A program made the translations under genes and the position numbers. From assembly GCA_036268155.1 (NCBI GenBank), contig DATAUQ010000095.1:1-54500 (forward strand): a DNA stretch of 54,500 nt, read 5' to 3'. The notes under the pieces were generated by a model. That model was not told the DNA's origin. It ran no database searches and saw nothing but the letters and a program-made list of their open reading frames with translations. This document shows, piece by piece, positions 2,318 through 13,299 of this stretch. The DNA comes from Verrucomicrobiia bacterium. GTDB taxonomy: Bacteria > Verrucomicrobiota > Verrucomicrobiia > Limisphaerales > UBA11358. Position 1 is the first letter of the stretch, and each line of letters starts with the position of its first letter.

Positions 2318-2391
2318 TGGAGCGGGTGAAGGGAATCGAACCCTCGTCTCAGCCTTGGGAAGGCCACATTCTACCATTGAACCACACCCGC
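2318..2391 (-). tRNA. tRNA-Gly (anticodon CCC), CCA encoded
   Basis: The reverse complement reads GCGGGTG TG GTTC AATGGTA GAAT G TGGCC TTCCCAA GGCTG AGA CGAGG GTTCGATT CCCTT CACCCGC TCCA. This gives a cloverleaf with a 7-bp acceptor stem, a T-loop GTTCGATT, and an anticodon loop TT-CCC-AA. Confidence 0.9.
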
Positions 2392-5418: not shown

Positions 5419-5954
5419 TCACGGAATTGGTCGAGAAATACAAGCAGCCTGTGATGAATTTTGTTTTCCGCTCGCTGCGTGACGAGGCCGAGGCGGAGGA
5501 TCTGGCGCAAAATGTTTTTCTGCAAGTCTTCAAATCCCGCGCACGCTACGAGCGCACGGCGAAATTTTCCACTTGGCTGTTCACCATCGCGCGGAATTTG
5601 TGCCTGAACGAAATCCGCCGCCGCTCGCGCCATCCCGCCGAATCGCTCGAAGAAACACATCCTGAAAACGAAGACCAGCCGTCACGGCAATACGAGGACA
5701 AGAAAATTTTTCTGCCGACGGAAAATGTATTGCACGGCGAACTCGCCAAAAAAATCGAGGAAGCGCTGGCCGAACTGCCGGAGAACCAGCGCACCGCCAT
5801 CTTGCTCTGCCGTCAGGACGAATTGAGTTACGAAGAGATCGCCGAGGTTTTGGACTGCTCGCTGTCCGCCACGAAATCGCTCATCCATCGCGGACGCGAA
5901 ACGCTCAAGGAAAAACTCAAGCCGTATCTGCAAACCGGCGAGTGGACGGAATAG
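5349..5954 (+). CDS. RNA polymerase sigma-70 factor, ECF subfamily
   Basis: Region 2 (EDLAQNVFLQVFKSRARYERTAKFSTWLFTIARNLCLNEIRRR) and region 4 (LPENQRTAILLCRQDELSYEEIAEVLDCSLSATKSLIHRGRETLKEKL). Confidence 0.9.
   Translation: MMPIQPDPDAVLMLRVKRGDRAAFTELVEKYKQPVMNFVFRSLRDEAEAEDLAQNVFLQVFKSRARYERTAKFSTWLFTIARNLCLNEIRRRSRHPAESLEETHPENEDQPSRQYEDKKIFLPTENVLHGELAKKIEEALAELPENQRTAILLCRQDELSYEEIAEVLDCSLSATKSLIHRGRETLKEKLKPYLQTGEWTE
5889..5946. repeat. 58-bp direct repeat, copy 1 (the last codons of the ECF sigma gene)
   Basis: cgcggacgcgaaacgctcaaggaaaaactcaagccgtatctgcaaaccggcgagtgga is identical at 6365..6422 (hand aligned). Confidence 0.9.
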
Positions 5955-6364
5955 ATTTTGGAACGCGTGAAAATTTTTGTCCCGCAGGGACGACGGAAAT
6001 TAGCCAGCTACGAAGTGGCTGGATTCGTGCGAAAAAACGATGCGTCCTGAAAGGACGCTGGAACTCGTCGTCGCATTTTCCACCGTCCTTTCAGGACGGA
6101 TTTTATTTTTGGACGGCTGACCCGGCACTTTGTGCCGGGCTAATTTCCGGTGTCGCTTTGCGACGGTTTTTTTCCAGCGGACATTTTCGATTAGCGCCGT
6201 AGGTGCGGCATATTTGTAGAAAACCGTCTGATAAAATTTTCCAAGCTCCGTCAGGAGCGACATGGTGGCCGTCCGCAAGGACCGAATATGCCGCTCCTAC
6301 GGAGCTTTTTCATTTTGTGAACGGCGGGCTACAAAGATGCCGCGCCGACGGCGCTCCGAAAGGG
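5955..6364. repeat. composite block of hairpin (REP/MITE-like) repeat units
   Basis: Consecutive stem-loops: gtcccgcagggac, gtcctgaaaggac...gtcctttcaggac, cccggcactttgtgccggg, gcgccgtaggtgcggc, gctccgtcaggagc, gctcctacggagc. Units recur at 21270..21530 and 35896..36070. Confidence 0.8.
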
Positions 6365-6422
6365 CGCGGACGCGAAACGCTCAAGGAAAAACTCAAGCCG
6401 TATCTGCAAACCGGCGAGTGGA
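6365..6422. repeat. 58-bp direct repeat, copy 2 (orphan copy of the sigma gene 3' end, followed by its own stop)
   Basis: Identical to 5889..5946. Here it reads ...GRETLKEKLKPYLQTGEWSD*, against ...GEWTE* in the intact gene. Confidence 0.9.
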
Positions 6423-6444
6423 GTGACTAAAAATATATCCGCTT

Positions 6445-6870
6445 TCAGCGCGTCTTGATTGACTGCCTGCTTCTCATCTGAACACCTTCGCGTCGGAGAT
6501 CGCGACAAAGTTTTTTGAATTCGTGATCAAATTTTTCAGATTTCTGCCAATCGGAAAAATCAGGAATGAAATACTCTCTAATCTCTTGGGCAATATCGCG
6601 CCCGGAATCAGCATCAAAACATTCCCATTCTTTTAACATTTGCATATCGCAAACCCGAATTGGAAATAACTTTCGTTTTCCATCCAGCTTTTCCTGCTTT
6701 CGCGCACGACGAATTTCTGTCTGAACCCAATCGCTTGCAATACTGGATTCAGAAAGAACAATCAGAATTTTATCATGCAAATGAATCGCTCGATCAATTT
6801 GCTCAAAAAGTTTTTTCCCACCTTTCATTTCCTCCGGTGCATACCAAACACGAATCTTCTCGGCTTTCAT
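6445..6870 (-). CDS. TIR domain protein, C-terminal fragment of a split pentapeptide-repeat/TIR gene
   Basis: KIRVWYAPEEMKGGKKLFEQIDRAIHLHDKILIVLSESSIASDWVQTEIRRARKQE matches the TIR pattern (W.D..m..G..l...I..AI.....l.vlS..s..S.Wv..E). The first TIR strand (CFISHSHKDD) lies in the upstream ORF. Confidence 0.75.
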   Translation of the reverse strand: MKAEKIRVWYAPEEMKGGKKLFEQIDRAIHLHDKILIVLSESSIASDWVQTEIRRARKQEKLDGKRKLFPIRVCDMQMLKEWECFDADSGRDIAQEIREYFIPDFSDWQKSEKFDHEFKKLCRDLRREGVQMRSRQSIKTR

Positions 6871-7505
6871 TTCGGCCCATAATTTTCGCGCAAAAAATCA
6901 TCCTTATGGCTATGGCTAATAAAACAAGAGTGAAACTGAATTGGCGTTGCTGCTTCAATAAGGTCAGGAAGGTAGTCGAGTAAAATTGGAGAAAGTCCGA
7001 TCCCCTTGAGAAATTTTATAGGAAGTCCATTGCCAGCTTGGTAGAGGCATTCAACACCAATTGACGATGGAGATACATGAATAACAGTTTCCAATCCCAC
7101 ACAGGTTTCCATATCCACATCGGCAAAAACTGTTTTCCCCATGCGAGATTCTCGAAAAATTGTTCCAAACAAATGGGAACCAACAAACATAGTGCTTTCT
7201 AGTGAGGCTTTGTAAAAATTTGCTTTGGCAAGGTCGGCTTCAGCAAAACTAGCTTCATTTAATTGTGCGTCGCGAAAATTAGCCCCATCTAAAATAGCAT
7301 CTTCAAAATTTGCCCCAGTTAAATCACAGCCAACAAATTCAGCGTTGCGTAATATAGCGCTCTTAAAATTTTGCCCGCTTAAATTTTCTCCAGAAAGATT
7401 TTCGTTTTCCAAATAAACGCCGCGAAAATCCGGATTTTCAGACGCAATTATATCCTGCCAGCTTCTTGAATCTGGAAGCGTGTGTGATTTTTTCCCAATA
7501 GCCAT
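6867..7505 (-). CDS. pentapeptide-repeat protein ending in the first TIR motif; N-terminal fragment of the split gene
   Basis: A run of A(D/N)LxX-type pentapeptides (NLSGENLSGQNFKSAILRNAEFVGCDLTGANFEDAILDGANFRDAQLNEASFAEADLAKANFYKASL), then 'FHSCFISHSHKDD'. It overlaps the next ORF by 4 nt, and the frames rejoin at the T6 run (plus-strand A6 at 6892..6897). Confidence 0.75.
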   Translation of the reverse strand: MAIGKKSHTLPDSRSWQDIIASENPDFRGVYLENENLSGENLSGQNFKSAILRNAEFVGCDLTGANFEDAILDGANFRDAQLNEASFAEADLAKANFYKASLESTMFVGSHLFGTIFRESRMGKTVFADVDMETCVGLETVIHVSPSSIGVECLYQAGNGLPIKFLKGIGLSPILLDYLPDLIEAATPIQFHSCFISHSHKDDFLRENYGPK

Positions 7506-7512
7506 GGATTGT

Positions 7513-8412
7513 TTATTTCTCCCGCTTCAAAAGAAATTCCGCCAGCGCTTCGAGCGCAATGGCTTTGCCTTTGAAAATTTTCAGCGCGGCAAACGCCTTG
7601 GCCGTCAGTTGCGCCGCGATCTGCCGCGATTTTTCCAGCCCGACAATCGCCGGGTAGGTCGCCTTTTGCACGGCCACGTCCTTGCCCGCCGTCTTGCCGA
7701 GCTGCTCACTGGTCTGCGTCACGTCGAGGATGTCGTCAATCACCTGAAACGCGAGGCCGACGTGGTAGCCGAAGTCGGTCAGCGCGGCGAGCTGCGCGGG
7801 TGTGCAGTTCGCGCTCATGCCGCCGAGCCGCACGGAACAGCACAGCAGCGCGGAGGTCTTGCGCTCGTGGATGAATTTCAGTTCGGCGATGGAAAGTTTT
7901 TTGCCTTCGCCTTCCAAATCCGCCACCTGCCCGGCGACGAGCTGCAACGAGCCGGACGCTTTTGCGATTTCCAAAATAATTTTGTCGTGCGGATAGCGCG
8001 GGAATTTTTTGCATTGCGCGGCGATCTCGAACGCCTGCGTCAACAGCGCGTCGCCCGCGAGCACGGCGATGCCTTCGCCGAAAACTTTGTGGTTGGTCGG
8101 CTTGCCCCGGCGGAAATCGTCGTTGTCCATCGCGGGCAGATCGTCGTGGATGAGCGAGTAAGTGTGAATGCACTCCACGGCGCACGCGAGCGGCATGGCG
8201 GCCGCGTCGCTGCCACCACACGCTTCGGCGGCGGCCAAGAGCAAAGCCGGGCGCATTCTTTTTCCGCCGGCAAAGAGCGAGTATCGCATCGCCTTGTGGA
8301 TCGTGGCAGGCTTGGTTTTTTCCGACGGCAGGAATTTATCGAGCGCGGCATTGGCGGTTTCGGTGCGCGTGGCGAGGAATTGGTTCAGATCGAATTGTTT
8401 TGATGCGGGCAT
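7513..8412 (-). CDS. ispA: polyprenyl synthetase (farnesyl/geranylgeranyl diphosphate synthase)
   Basis: First DDxxD motif region 'ECIHTYSLIHDDLPAMDNDDFRRGKPTNHKVFG' and second 'LAFQVIDDILDV'. The likely start is the ATG at 8412 (MPASKQFDL); the ORF-track start at 8448 is an upstream extension. Confidence 0.85.
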   Translation of the reverse strand: MPASKQFDLNQFLATRTETANAALDKFLPSEKTKPATIHKAMRYSLFAGGKRMRPALLLAAAEACGGSDAAAMPLACAVECIHTYSLIHDDLPAMDNDDFRRGKPTNHKVFGEGIAVLAGDALLTQAFEIAAQCKKFPRYPHDKIILEIAKASGSLQLVAGQVADLEGEGKKLSIAELKFIHERKTSALLCCSVRLGGMSANCTPAQLAALTDFGYHVGLAFQVIDDILDVTQTSEQLGKTAGKDVAVQKATYPAIVGLEKSRQIAAQLTAKAFAALKIFKGKAIALEALAEFLLKREK

Positions 8413-8524
8413 AAAATTATTTTCAGAAAATGCCCGAAAGCAGAGCAAGTTTGAAGGGAATTTTTGTTATTGCCTTCGAGTGGGCAGCCGTTAAGCTACG
8501 CGGCTCGATTTGATTTGAAAAAAC

Positions 8525-8779
8525 ATGAACGCTGAACTCTGCAAACGCGCCGCTGAAAAAGTCGGCAACCCGAATGTCCTCGTCAACATCGTCTCGCGCC
8601 GCGTGCGCCAGTTGAATTCCGGCGGCGGCGGCTTGAGCCGTCCGCTGATTGACAACGTGGGCCACCTCGGCGCGGCGGACATCGCGTTGCGCGAGATCAT
8701 CGAGGAAAAAATCGGCTGGAAAATGCCGGAGATCGTCGCCCTGACCCGCCCGGTGGCCAAGAAACGCAAGAAGCGGTAA
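8525..8779 (+). CDS. rpoZ: DNA-directed RNA polymerase subunit omega
   Basis: The 84-aa sequence 'KVGNPNVLVNIVSRRVRQLN...DIALREIIEEKI' matches the RpoZ pattern. Confidence 0.8.
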   Translation: MNAELCKRAAEKVGNPNVLVNIVSRRVRQLNSGGGGLSRPLIDNVGHLGAADIALREIIEEKIGWKMPEIVALTRPVAKKRKKR

Positions 8780-9469: not shown

Positions 9470-10021
9470 ATGAAAGCAAATCAATTGGCAGCACTCGTTT
9501 TGCGACTGCTTGGAATTTATTGCCTTGTCCAAGTCATTCCCGTGGCGTCCATATTTACCAGCGTAATTTTTTCTGCATTAAACGGCGCGAATGGTTCTGC
9601 TTCAATGGCAATTTTGGCTGCCTTATTTTTGATTTCACCAATTGTCATTGGTGTTTTACTGATTATTCGTTCTGTGCCTTGGGGCGAAAAATTGATCTCA
9701 AAAGATGCAGGCGACGGAAATATTTCAGCGGTTTCATTTGAGCAAGTTCAGATGCTCGCATTTGCAGTCACGGGCATTCTTATATTTGCTGGCGCATTGC
9801 CGCAACTATTCAACAGCGTTTTTAACTTATTGCATTTGTTGTCGTCTGAAAATTCACGGAACACTGATCCGATTCACAACAATCCGTATCTAATTGAATA
9901 TGCCATTGGAACGCTCTTGAAAACCGCGCTCGGTCTGTGGCTATTTTTCGGAGCGTGTGGATTTGCAAACTTCTGGCGTTCACTGAAAAATTTCGGGACG
10001 CCGAAGCCGCCGGAAAATTAA
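9470..10021 (+). CDS. hypothetical multi-pass membrane protein
   Basis: Four hydrophobic segments. AT-richer than the flanks by eye, and bracketed by 'tcgttgaa'-type repeat units. Confidence 0.5.
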   Translation: MKANQLAALVLRLLGIYCLVQVIPVASIFTSVIFSALNGANGSASMAILAALFLISPIVIGVLLIIRSVPWGEKLISKDAGDGNISAVSFEQVQMLAFAVTGILIFAGALPQLFNSVFNLLHLLSSENSRNTDPIHNNPYLIEYAIGTLLKTALGLWLFFGACGFANFWRSLKNFGTPKPPEN

Positions 10022-11833: not shown

Positions 11834-12754
11834 GTGGCCAAAGACAGACTCCAACGCGGATTGCGCGCGACCTTTTTAGGAATCGCGGTTAATCTCATTT
11901 TGGGCACGGCGAAATTTCTCGCGGGAATCTTCGGCCATTCGCACGCGCTCATCGCGGATGCGACGGAATCTTTTGCGGATATTTTCAATTCACTCGTCAT
12001 CTGGCGCGGCATCGTCGTTGCCGCCGCACCGCCTGATAAAGAACATCCTTACGGCCACAGCAAAGCCGAGCCGCTTGCGGCAGCATTTGGCGCGGTGATG
12101 CTTTTGGCGGCGGCACTTTGGATTGCCGGGAAAGCGGCGTTTGACATTTACGAATTTTTAAATCCGCAAAGTTTTGATTTTCATCGCGAGCCGCTGCGCG
12201 CGTTCACGCTCATCGTTTTGGTCGTCGTCATCGCCGTCAAGGAAGGGCTGTTCCGTTTTGTCATCGGCGAAGGCGACGCGACGGACAATTCCGCCGTGAA
12301 AACAGATGCGTGGCATCATCGCAGCGACGCGATCACGTCGGCGGGCGCGTTCATCGGCATCAGCATCGCGCTGGTCGGCGGCGAAAAATATTCCTGGGCG
12401 GACGACGCGGCGGCGATTTTTTGCGCCATCATCATCGGCTTGAATGGCTGGCTGTTACTGCGCGCGCCGTTGAGCGAATTGATGGACGAGGCGCCCGATC
12501 CCAAAATCGTGGAGCAGATCCGGCAGATCGCGGGGGCCATTTCCGGCGTGGCGCGCGTGGAAAAATGTTTTGTGCGGAAGGCCGGGCATCTTTTTTTTGT
12601 AGAGATGCACGTGGAGGTGGACCCGCAGATGACCGTGCTGCGCTCGCACGAGATCGCGCACGACGTGAAGGATAAAATCCGCGAAACGATGCCTGCCGTC
12701 AGCGACGTGCTGGTTCACATCGAGCCGCTGAACATTCCGGCGCAGCGGAAGTGA
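11834..12754 (+). CDS. cation diffusion facilitator family transporter
   Basis: GTG start. 'GHSHALIADATESFADI...HPYGHSKAEPL...DAWHHRSDAITS' are CDF TM2/TM5 metal-site motifs, with a C-terminal cytoplasmic domain. Confidence 0.85.
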   Translation: MAKDRLQRGLRATFLGIAVNLILGTAKFLAGIFGHSHALIADATESFADIFNSLVIWRGIVVAAAPPDKEHPYGHSKAEPLAAAFGAVMLLAAALWIAGKAAFDIYEFLNPQSFDFHREPLRAFTLIVLVVVIAVKEGLFRFVIGEGDATDNSAVKTDAWHHRSDAITSAGAFIGISIALVGGEKYSWADDAAAIFCAIIIGLNGWLLLRAPLSELMDEAPDPKIVEQIRQIAGAISGVARVEKCFVRKAGHLFFVEMHVEVDPQMTVLRSHEIAHDVKDKIRETMPAVSDVLVHIEPLNIPAQRK

Positions 12755-12828
12755 AAAAGTTTTGACACGGATTGAATTCGTGTCTGAAGAACGCGGGACA
12801 AAATATTTTCTAAAATAAAGTCGCCAAC

Positions 12829-13206
12829 ATGACAAAACCGCCTGAATACGATCAATACATAAATTCCGCACAATGGCGGAACATTTCTGCTTTGATGAAG
12901 AGAATAGCGGGTAACAAATGTGGGCATTGCGGGCGTAGCTCATCGAAACTTGAAGTTCACCATTTAACATATGAACGGTTCGGACGTGAACGTATGAACG
13001 ATTTGGTGGTTTTATGTGAATCTTGTCATGAAGTTGCAGATGAAAAACGTGTCTCTGAACGCAAGCAACGTGGCAGGAGAGCGCGTGACAATGCTGGATA
13101 CAATACTTACATGACGAAAAAATACGGCGAGGGATTTGATTCTTACTATCATGGACATGAAGAATTTTCCGAATGGTTAGAAAAGAAAAATGAAGAAGGC
13201 GGTTAG
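12829..13206 (+). CDS. small HNH endonuclease-like protein
   Basis: CGHCG...LEVHHLTYERFGRERMNDLVVLCESCH is an HNH/zinc-finger pattern. The segment is locally AT-rich by eye. Confidence 0.6.
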   Translation: MTKPPEYDQYINSAQWRNISALMKRIAGNKCGHCGRSSSKLEVHHLTYERFGRERMNDLVVLCESCHEVADEKRVSERKQRGRRARDNAGYNTYMTKKYGEGFDSYYHGHEEFSEWLEKKNEEGG

Positions 13207-13299
13207 TTGCGCGTTTTTTGTTTGATTTAACCTCATTTGCTGTCGCACAGACCTTGCACTTCATCTTGACGCCGCCGCGCAGCAGTTTATTTTCGGCGC

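Follow-up and report, generated by a model that had tools for sequence, protein, structure and literature searches.

A single-base frame break in a pentapeptide-repeat–TIR gene of a Verrucomicrobiia bacterium and the single-chain family to which the gene belongs

The closest described systems to the gene considered here are the TIR-domain NADases (NAD+-cleaving enzymes) of the AbTir/PdTir/BtpA type together with Cat1, the Thoeris protein ThsB, the repeat-sensor proteins of the bNACHT, Avs/STAND and TIR-NLR classes and, for its N-terminal half, the pentapeptide-repeat proteins (PRPs) Qnr, MfpA and AlbG. Pentapeptide repeats are counted among the sensor repeats of bacterial NLR-related (bNACHT) defence proteins. 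The gene itself lies on the minus strand, between positions 7505 and 6445, of a 54,500-nt stretch from a soil bacterium of the Verrucomicrobiia (Limisphaerales; GenBank assembly GCA_036268155.1, contig DATAUQ010000095.1, positions 1–54,500; hereafter the window, meaning this whole stretch), where it encodes pentapeptide repeats, a linker and a TIR domain (PRP-TIR) and is interrupted by one frame break. We hold with moderate confidence that the window copy is one allele of an accessory gene that differs between strains and that this allele has recently lost one base, without programmed frameshifting being involved, and judge from its sequence that the gene is a member of a large, uncharacterised family of single-chain PRP-linker-TIR proteins.

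Comparison with the described systems places the window protein beside, and not within, each of them. With the AbTir/PdTir/BtpA-type NADases and Cat1 it has in common the TIR fold and the Glu of a D-W-x-x-x-E motif, but their N-termini are of coiled-coil or CARF type, whereas the window protein has a pentapeptide helix and a 54-aa linker; identity is low, the nearest solved TIR domains by sequence being Cat1 and AbTir, along with PdTir-type chains (phmmer against the PDB, E about 1e-5). The TIR domain scores above the Pfam ThsB_TIR cut-off (27.7 vs 21.2 bits) and matches several PADLOC ThsB profiles, yet the gene is a single-gene design with an N-terminal domain of its own and lacks a neighbouring ThsA-type effector; the NCBIfam ThcB4 score is 12.9 against a cut-off of 220. 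Membership of Thoeris was rejected, there being no ThsA effector (SIR2/SLOG, or Macro/TM) beside the window gene and no recurrent partner at homologue loci. The logic of bNACHT, Avs/STAND and TIR-NLR proteins, in which a TIR effector is joined to a sensor whose repeats form a superstructure, is shared; PRP-TIR, however, has no nucleoside triphosphatase (NTPase) switch, carries the 54-aa linker in its place and is ordered with the sensor N-terminal and the TIR C-terminal. Qnr, MfpA and AlbG share the predicted right-handed quadrilateral beta-helix and its acidic surface, although the window helix has about half their length, is without the Qnr loops and continues into linker and TIR where those proteins have a dimerisation tail. 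Membership of the Qnr or MfpA families was likewise rejected on NCBIfam scores (34.8 vs a cut-off of 240 bits, and 21 vs 360), as was that of HetL and PipB, whose NCBIfam cut-offs are not reached. The best PADLOC match is PDC-S66 (E 8e-13), to which the TIR domain alone aligns (profile positions 149–240 of 282), the N-terminal half of that profile failing to match the repeats. No NCBIfam model reaches its cut-off for the full protein, and no PRP-TIR system or repeat-TIR fusion was found in the literature searched; since what PADLOC and NCBIfam recognise is the TIR or the repeats alone, with scores under the family cut-offs, the preliminary description of this DNA was right to place the architecture outside described systems. 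The PRP-TIR family, absent from the defence catalogues and literature searched, is an undescribed variant of TIR sensor–effector proteins.

Two open reading frames (ORFs) called on the minus strand, 7505..6867 (212 aa) and 6870..6445 (141 aa), are by translation the halves of one gene. The upstream ORF (6867..7505) runs through an N-terminal cap, the pentapeptide repeats, the linker and TIR strand betaA before ending in eight out-of-frame residues (LRENYGPK) and a TGA. The remainder of the TIR frame (6445..6897) opens directly after a TGA at 6900..6898 and runs to its natural stop, the 141-aa ORF being called from an ATG at 6870; the two ORFs overlap in an ATGA (6867..6870), with the stop of the 212-aa ORF lying over the ATG (Met214) of the 141-aa ORF. 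Adding one base gives a 353-aa read-through protein, and neither frame inspection nor alignment to relatives revealed a second stop or indel anywhere in the window gene. This protein matches Pfam Pentapeptide (PF00805; E 2.8e-22, 78.3 bits vs a cut-off of 20.2, in three stretches), with PF13599 and PF13576 likewise above their cut-offs, and TIR_2 (E 3.3e-19, 70 bits vs a cut-off of 28, aa 195–302, profile 2–111 of 122). The TIR domain (6601..6932, aa 192–302; Pfam TIR_2, TIR and ThsB_TIR) spans the break and is complete only in the read-through protein, neither ORF alone having the whole of it. The earlier proposals that the adjacent ORFs form one gene with a single frame break, and that this gene encodes pentapeptide repeats followed by a complete TIR domain (including the WxxxE Glu), are thus both upheld.

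An AlphaFold model of the read-through protein (predicted local distance difference test score, pLDDT, 85) comprises a beta-helix at aa 25–145, helices at 151–186 and a TIR domain at 194–340. The first of these is predicted to be a right-handed quadrilateral beta-helix, with block-mean pLDDT of 96–98 over aa 31–150, and the predicted helix is matched by Foldseek to Np275/276, Rfr, QnrB1, MfpA and AlbG; the N-terminal region up to aa 136 has a net charge of −9, and is negative in 89% of relatives. Pfam places the repeats at aa 26–136 (7098..7430), such that they span roughly 110–120 aa, and not the approximately 175 aa first ascribed to them, what follows as far as aa 190 being a conserved helical linker. 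This linker (6936..7097, aa 137–190, 54 aa) has the same length in 54/54 aligned relatives, contains invariant H143, F165 and G170, and is helical from aa 151, over its C-terminal two-thirds. For the TIR domain, Foldseek returns AbTir (7uxu, template modelling score 0.76 on the target) and SPARTA TIR-APAZ. The candidate catalytic residue, which follows the W of the alphaC region, is Glu264 (GAA codon at 6715..6717) in the motif SDWVQTEI, and it aligns with the Glu of DWTNYEL in AbTir and of DWCWDEL in Cat1. It is invariant in the 54 aligned relatives; the preliminary description had held that homologues lacking the conserved context of the catalytic Glu would argue against function. That description had also set the break inside the first TIR strand; in the model the break falls just past betaA (aa 194–197), at the start of alphaA (aa 200–215).

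The family behind this copy is extensive. Pattern-based scans of genome and metagenome contigs yielded homologues of at most 57% identity (mostly 39–52%) and missed the close relatives, which were obtained by a protein homologue search followed by retrieval of the contigs encoding those proteins. The read-through protein is matched by 1848 proteins at E ≤ 1e-5, the best being intact proteins of 330–370 aa with both domains, and an exhaustive profile search of 50%-identity cluster representatives finds over 100 full-length repeat-linker-TIR proteins among the 150 top-scoring ones. It aligns end to end with intact homologues (up to 69% identity, 100% coverage), several of the best-matching of which are labelled Verrucomicrobiae or Limisphaerales. 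Among the 54 aligned members the repeat region is the variable part (126–275 aa), while the TIR domain and C-terminal tail are strongly conserved, with the consensus FISYSHxDExFARRLW...VWYAPEEMKGG...S.WV.TE...FIPDFS.W. The rarity implied when the architecture was first remarked upon does not stand: the family is large and mostly intact. One TIR-only match (P0061) is truncated by the end of its contig and hence uninformative; another member, P0043 (356 aa), has no repeats and consists of two tandem linker-TIR modules.

The break itself can be localised to 6891..6898, where the coding strand reads GA TTTTTT G and relatives read GAA TTG TTT G or GAA GTT TTT G, leaving the window copy one base short. 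In the upstream frame the coding strand is CAT AAG GAT GAT TTT TTG CGC GAA AAT TAT GGG CCG AAA TGA, and in the other frame, after the TGA at 6900..6898, TTT TTT GCG CGA AAA TTA TGG GCC GAA ATG AAA; the plus strand carries A6 at 6892..6897, confirming the earlier placement of the break at gaT TTT TTG (plus-strand caaaaaa at 6891..6897). It had been suggested that one extra T would repair the gene. One added base does restore the frame, but a T missing from a T7 run is, judging from the relatives, less likely than the loss of the A that ends the GAA codon of Glu203, because those relatives read GAT GAA TTG TTT GCG or GAC GAA GTT TTT GCG and Glu203 is at least 90% conserved. Since the loss falls between betaA and alphaA, ordinary translation ends at 212 aa, before the catalytic part of the TIR domain can be made.

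How far the lesion can be trusted was judged from other assemblies of this locus. The Logan contig set of a soil metagenome run (X1) contains a 1153-nt contig identical to 6397..7549, A6 included, with zero differences over its length. As X1 is the only run holding the window allele, and this contig probably comes from assembling the same reads a second time, the agreement argues against an assembler slip, although contigs cannot show minority length variants. Could the gene nevertheless be intact in the organism, a base having been dropped from the homopolymer in sequencing or assembly? The break does touch a six-base homopolymer, the word depth of the X1 contig is only about 8 (against about 28 on the ispA side), and the lesion is alone in an otherwise perfect gene. 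Set against this are the reproduction of A6 in the second contig set and the recurrence of a comparable lesion, in a sister allele described below, in four separate metagenome datasets, from which it follows that real frameshift alleles exist at this locus. Short-read chemistry normally reads six-base runs correctly. We therefore regard an artefact as very unlikely.

The closest, sister allele comes from two ENA samples or assemblies (L001 and L002) and from contigs of the peat runs X4 and X10, which make up those four datasets. At the site of the window's break it is in frame (GAT GAA TTG TTT GCG); it carries instead a 1-nt deletion of its own about 75 nt downstream, in GGT GGG AAA AAA, which becomes EEMKGRKNFLSK and gives a 290-aa product. 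The corresponding window sequence, T GGG AAAAAA at 6811..6820 (minus strand), encodes the GGKK of the BB-loop, and the sister deletion there leaves A AAA AAC in phase. A third allele, found on an X27 contig, is intact at both sites: at 6897 the additional base is present, and at 6818–6820 nothing is deleted. The syntenic orthologues L028–L030 and L036 are intact, and orthologues read GAC GAA GTT TTT GCG in frame where the window copy breaks. In other contigs of the X1 sample the shared flanks give way to different sequence at 6430 and 7520; this spot therefore varies between co-occurring strains.

Divergence between the window and L001 alleles bears on the age of both lesions. By the Nei–Gojobori method, the ratio of non-synonymous to synonymous substitution rates (dN/dS) is 0.13 overall, 0.14 in the repeat region and 0.11 for the TIR part, where 10 differences are synonymous and 5 non-synonymous and where both alleles are out of frame. 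So low a dN/dS (about 0.1), with no further lesion in either allele, shows that both breaks are recent compared with the separation of the two alleles. The window copy would accordingly carry a real, very recent inactivating mutation, as a young pseudogene or a segregating null allele, and, among the near-identical alleles found at this locus, the TIR half would have been knocked out independently at least twice, the window lesion being one such case. The synonymous divergence (dS) of the two alleles is uneven (0.48 in repeats plus linker, 0.15 in the TIR part, 0.25 at the ispA 3′ end), which suggests recombination inside the gene or faster turnover of its sensor half; in the comparison of the window with L028, dN is 0.34 in the PRP part and 0.17 in the TIR part.

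A low dN/dS in the repeats, which both broken alleles keep intact together with the linker while the TIR alone is cut, might also be taken to mean that the split gene works: the 212-aa repeat-plus-linker protein would then be a functional product, such as a DNA-mimic-like binder or decoy, perhaps acting with the 141-aa TIR fragment through stop–start coupling at the ATGA, in which the stop of one ORF and the start of the next share bases. Recent breakage explains the low dN/dS equally well, however; Met214 and the overlap are by-products of a conserved RMR/EMK motif combined with the shifted frame; and the 141-aa fragment, which in the model is without strand betaA and helix alphaA, is for that reason unlikely to fold alone. 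Nor did a stand-alone PRP-linker family of this type stand out among the best homologue matches. A working split gene is, to our minds, extremely unlikely.

We next consider the heptamer T TTT TTG (6891–6897, coding strand), which is in phase with the upstream frame and lies within the overlap of the two frames, as in programmed −1 sites of the dnaX and IS3/IS911 (insertion sequence) type, where an in-phase X XXY YYZ heptamer likewise stands at a two-frame junction. The preliminary description had proposed a −1 ribosomal slip on this heptamer as one means of restoring the protein. Unlike those programmed sites, the window site is not conserved, lacks a stimulatory structure, uses a heptamer that is weak in E. 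coli and is expected by chance, and the proposal fails on these four counts. Programmed −1 frameshifting was rejected as a candidate, orthologues being single ORFs with GAA TTG TTT or GAA GTT TTT and no heptamer. The T run is itself not conserved, with intact orthologues having GTT TTT or GTT TTC and other clades no run of six or more in the gene. Folding of the 119 nt from the site gave no stimulatory RNA structure downstream (−20.6 kcal/mol vs a shuffle mean of −24.2, z = +1.15, that is, weaker than the shuffles). When each base of the repaired gene was deleted in turn, 44–52% of all 1-nt deletions left an in-phase X XXY YYZ heptamer at which a −1 slip would rescue the frame, so that finding one in two lesions out of two is unremarkable. 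We conclude that T TTT TTG arose incidentally, from the AT richness of the gene.

A weaker form of the same idea supposes leaky or switchable expression, through −1 slippage (on T TTT TTG here and on A AAA AAC in the sister allele) or through phase variation, so that a little full-length protein, or an ON/OFF population, would keep the cost of a toxic NADase low. In its favour, each of the two independent lesions has a slippery heptamer in phase and would be corrected by the same −1 shift, the TIR frame is clean with its dN/dS of 0.11, and A_AA.A_AA.C shifts at more than 0.1% without a stimulator in E. coli and is a proven shift site in an IS family (PMC4066793). In the same study, heptamers without a stimulator reached only 2–10 times a background of 0.055%, and U_UU.U_UU.G fell outside the set exceeding 0.1% (PMC4066793). 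The lack of downstream structure, the unconserved T run, the 44–52% chance of such a heptamer per random deletion and the likelihood that the lost base was the A of GAA and not a unit of the run all count against this explanation too. As to phase variation, the tract is six bases long and is not conserved, and contigs hide length variants within a sample. Six-base tracts are short for efficient slipped-strand switching. Taken together, these points make leaky or switchable expression unlikely, while trace rescue of about 0.1% by −1 slippage on T TTT TTG is conceivable.

Part of the evidence that the gene is accessory comes from its position. The gene for a polyprenyl synthase (ispA-like, 7513..8448, minus strand) stops 7 nt before the PRP-TIR start, and the same 7-nt junction is found in the closest allele (L001/L002) and in the intact orthologues L028–L030 (66–71% identity). 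The GC content of the PRP-TIR gene is 40.7%, against 57.8% for the GlnD/ECF sigma flank, 59.2% for the ispA-like gene and 53.9% for the whole window, so that the greater AT richness first noticed by eye is confirmed by computation; the L028 copy is AT-rich too (42.9% vs 59–60%). Between the window and L028, dS is saturated in the PRP-TIR gene and 0.56 in ispA. Saturation at a site where ispA has diverged so much less, together with a GC content some 17 points below that of the host, fits an accessory gene with alleles exchanged at a fixed spot, and not one that evolves with the chromosome. In L036 a PIN_3 toxin gene and a 92-aa partner (2212–2912) lie between ispA and the PRP-TIR gene, and small accessory genes seem to accumulate at this place next to ispA.

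Elsewhere several homologues have defence or mobile genes as neighbours. One (L040) adjoins Hachiman, SNIPE and a CAP12-type TIR, another (L005) a NACHT-LRR gene; a third (L031) sits inside type I restriction-modification fragments with a zeta toxin and IS200, and a fourth (L033) follows a transposase near a recombinase. Tandem PRP-TIR paralogues occur beside an Eco57I-type methylase in L039 (6001–8212) and also in L006 (3183–5156). Defence or mobile neighbours are thus seen in L040, L005, L031, L033, L039 and L036 and not in the window, L028 or L038, the last of which has housekeeping neighbours; the sample is small. In L007 (5015–8957) one intact and three fragmented PRP-TIR copies lie within 4 kb; as that assembly may be long-read based and its frameshifts are untrusted, we did not use the fragments as evidence of decay. 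An all-against-all BLAST of ORFs within 3 kb at 22 loci returned no conserved partner gene, only same-genome duplicates and paralogues, and because no neighbour recurs across homologue loci we treat PRP-TIR as a single-gene unit.

The PRP-TIR effector is probably an anti-phage NADase, to judge from its motifs and contexts. In intact members the acidic repeat helix would be the surface that senses or binds a partner, either derived from the invader or perturbed by it; this binding would drive TIR–TIR assembly, and the assembled TIR would cleave NAD+, depleting it or producing a signal, and so halt the infected cell, which would make PRP-TIR a one-gene defence of the abortive-infection type. The family might instead have no immune NADase function, with the TIR acting as a protein–protein adaptor, or the repeat helix regulating a host DNA enzyme in the manner of Qnr and MfpA, in a housekeeping role tied to the ispA operon. 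Retention of the position right after ispA in several related genomes, the housekeeping neighbours in the window and L038 and the resemblance of the repeat fold to gyrase-binding PRPs are compatible with such a role. It is less easily reconciled with the invariance of Glu264 and its surrounding motif, with the many homologues in defence or mobile contexts or as tandem paralogues, with ispA-site alleles that are far more diverged than ispA and so far below the host in GC, and with Qnr and MfpA scores far under their cut-offs; we consider a non-immune role improbable.

Several observations weigh against our reading of the copy and of the family. Heterogeneity between A6 and A7, or a systematic read error, is compatible with contig-only data, from which minority variants are dropped. 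Low dN/dS and a clean downstream frame are equally expected from low-level expression via slippage; each of the two lesions, independent as they are, left an X XXY YYZ heptamer in phase, and that of the sister, A AAA AAC, is among the better unstimulated shifters in E. coli. In the window lineage the gene stands among housekeeping genes and is apparently co-transcribed with ispA, a setting atypical of a defence island, and no PRP-TIR gene was found among the RNA runs searched. The NADase activity, the anti-phage activity and the ligand of the repeats are all inferred. One could go further and suppose that the recurrent one-base lesions beside A/T runs near the beginning of the TIR, every one in phase with a slippery heptamer, are a selected way to hold a toxic PRP-TIR effector at trace or switchable levels, PRP-TIR being a widespread one-gene immune system whose acidic, DNA-like helix baits phage DNA-binding proteins and thereby switches on the TIR NADase; we put this forward as a speculation with little chance of being correct.

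The window copy is by itself an ordinary broken gene, and the family behind it is the useful part. The members of that family are compact, at about 340 aa, occur very commonly in soil Verrucomicrobiota, Acidobacteriota and other phyla, and join a repeat sensor directly to a TIR domain with an intact catalytic motif, with neither an NTPase switch nor a partner gene. Were the family an anti-phage NADase, it would be among the simplest sensor–effector TIR designs, and also a case in which the host, and not the phage, makes use of a DNA-mimic-type fold. Of the three alleles at this locus one is intact and two were broken independently; they offer a natural series for judging the cost of such effectors.

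Around the gene, the window encodes a TetR-family regulator, GlnD, an ECF sigma factor, the polyprenyl synthase, RpoZ, SmpB, a DUF1015 protein and a cation-efflux protein. Downstream, the gene was said to adjoin a repeat-bracketed block, and a perfect 57-bp direct repeat (5889–5945 and 6365–6421), made up of the 19 codons that end the ECF sigma gene, is indeed present. The second copy (6365..6421, plus strand) repeats the ECF sigma 3′ end, has its own stop at 6428–6430, 15 nt from the PRP-TIR stop, and forms the 3′ boundary of the AT-rich gene. The enclosed 419-bp block (5946–6364) is crowded with short hairpins that are GC-rich and lead into T runs; the scan of 5800–8600 gave 11 terminator-like sites, most of them inside this block, against 4.7 expected. 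Inside it lie an Rfam Acido-Lenti-1 motif (RF01687) at 6121–6165 (plus strand; 38.2 bits vs a gathering score of 37, E 1.5e-6) and a second, inverted and weaker copy at 5978–6022 (minus strand; 29.9 bits). The arrangement suggests that the ECF sigma gene took up a small insertion or duplication in its 3′ end.

Further from the gene, a tRNA-Gly(CCC) at 2318–2391 (minus strand) stands beside an AT-rich stretch (GC 0.40–0.45; 1650–2391 in all) with no convincing ORF, between the TetR-family gene and GlnD, and may mark the remnant of an integration site. Two AT-rich ORFs, at 9470–10021 (plus strand, 183 aa) and 12455–13264 (minus strand, 269 aa), have a GC content of about 0.41–0.42 and no Pfam match, the first occupying the place held in syntenic L028 by ribosomal protein L28 and a lactonase. 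In an Acidobacteriaceae metagenome-assembled genome (L008, 8001–9921) the PRP-TIR gene directly adjoins smpB, from which the window gene is 1.4 kb distant; the proximity in both could be coincidence or a shared insertion hot spot.

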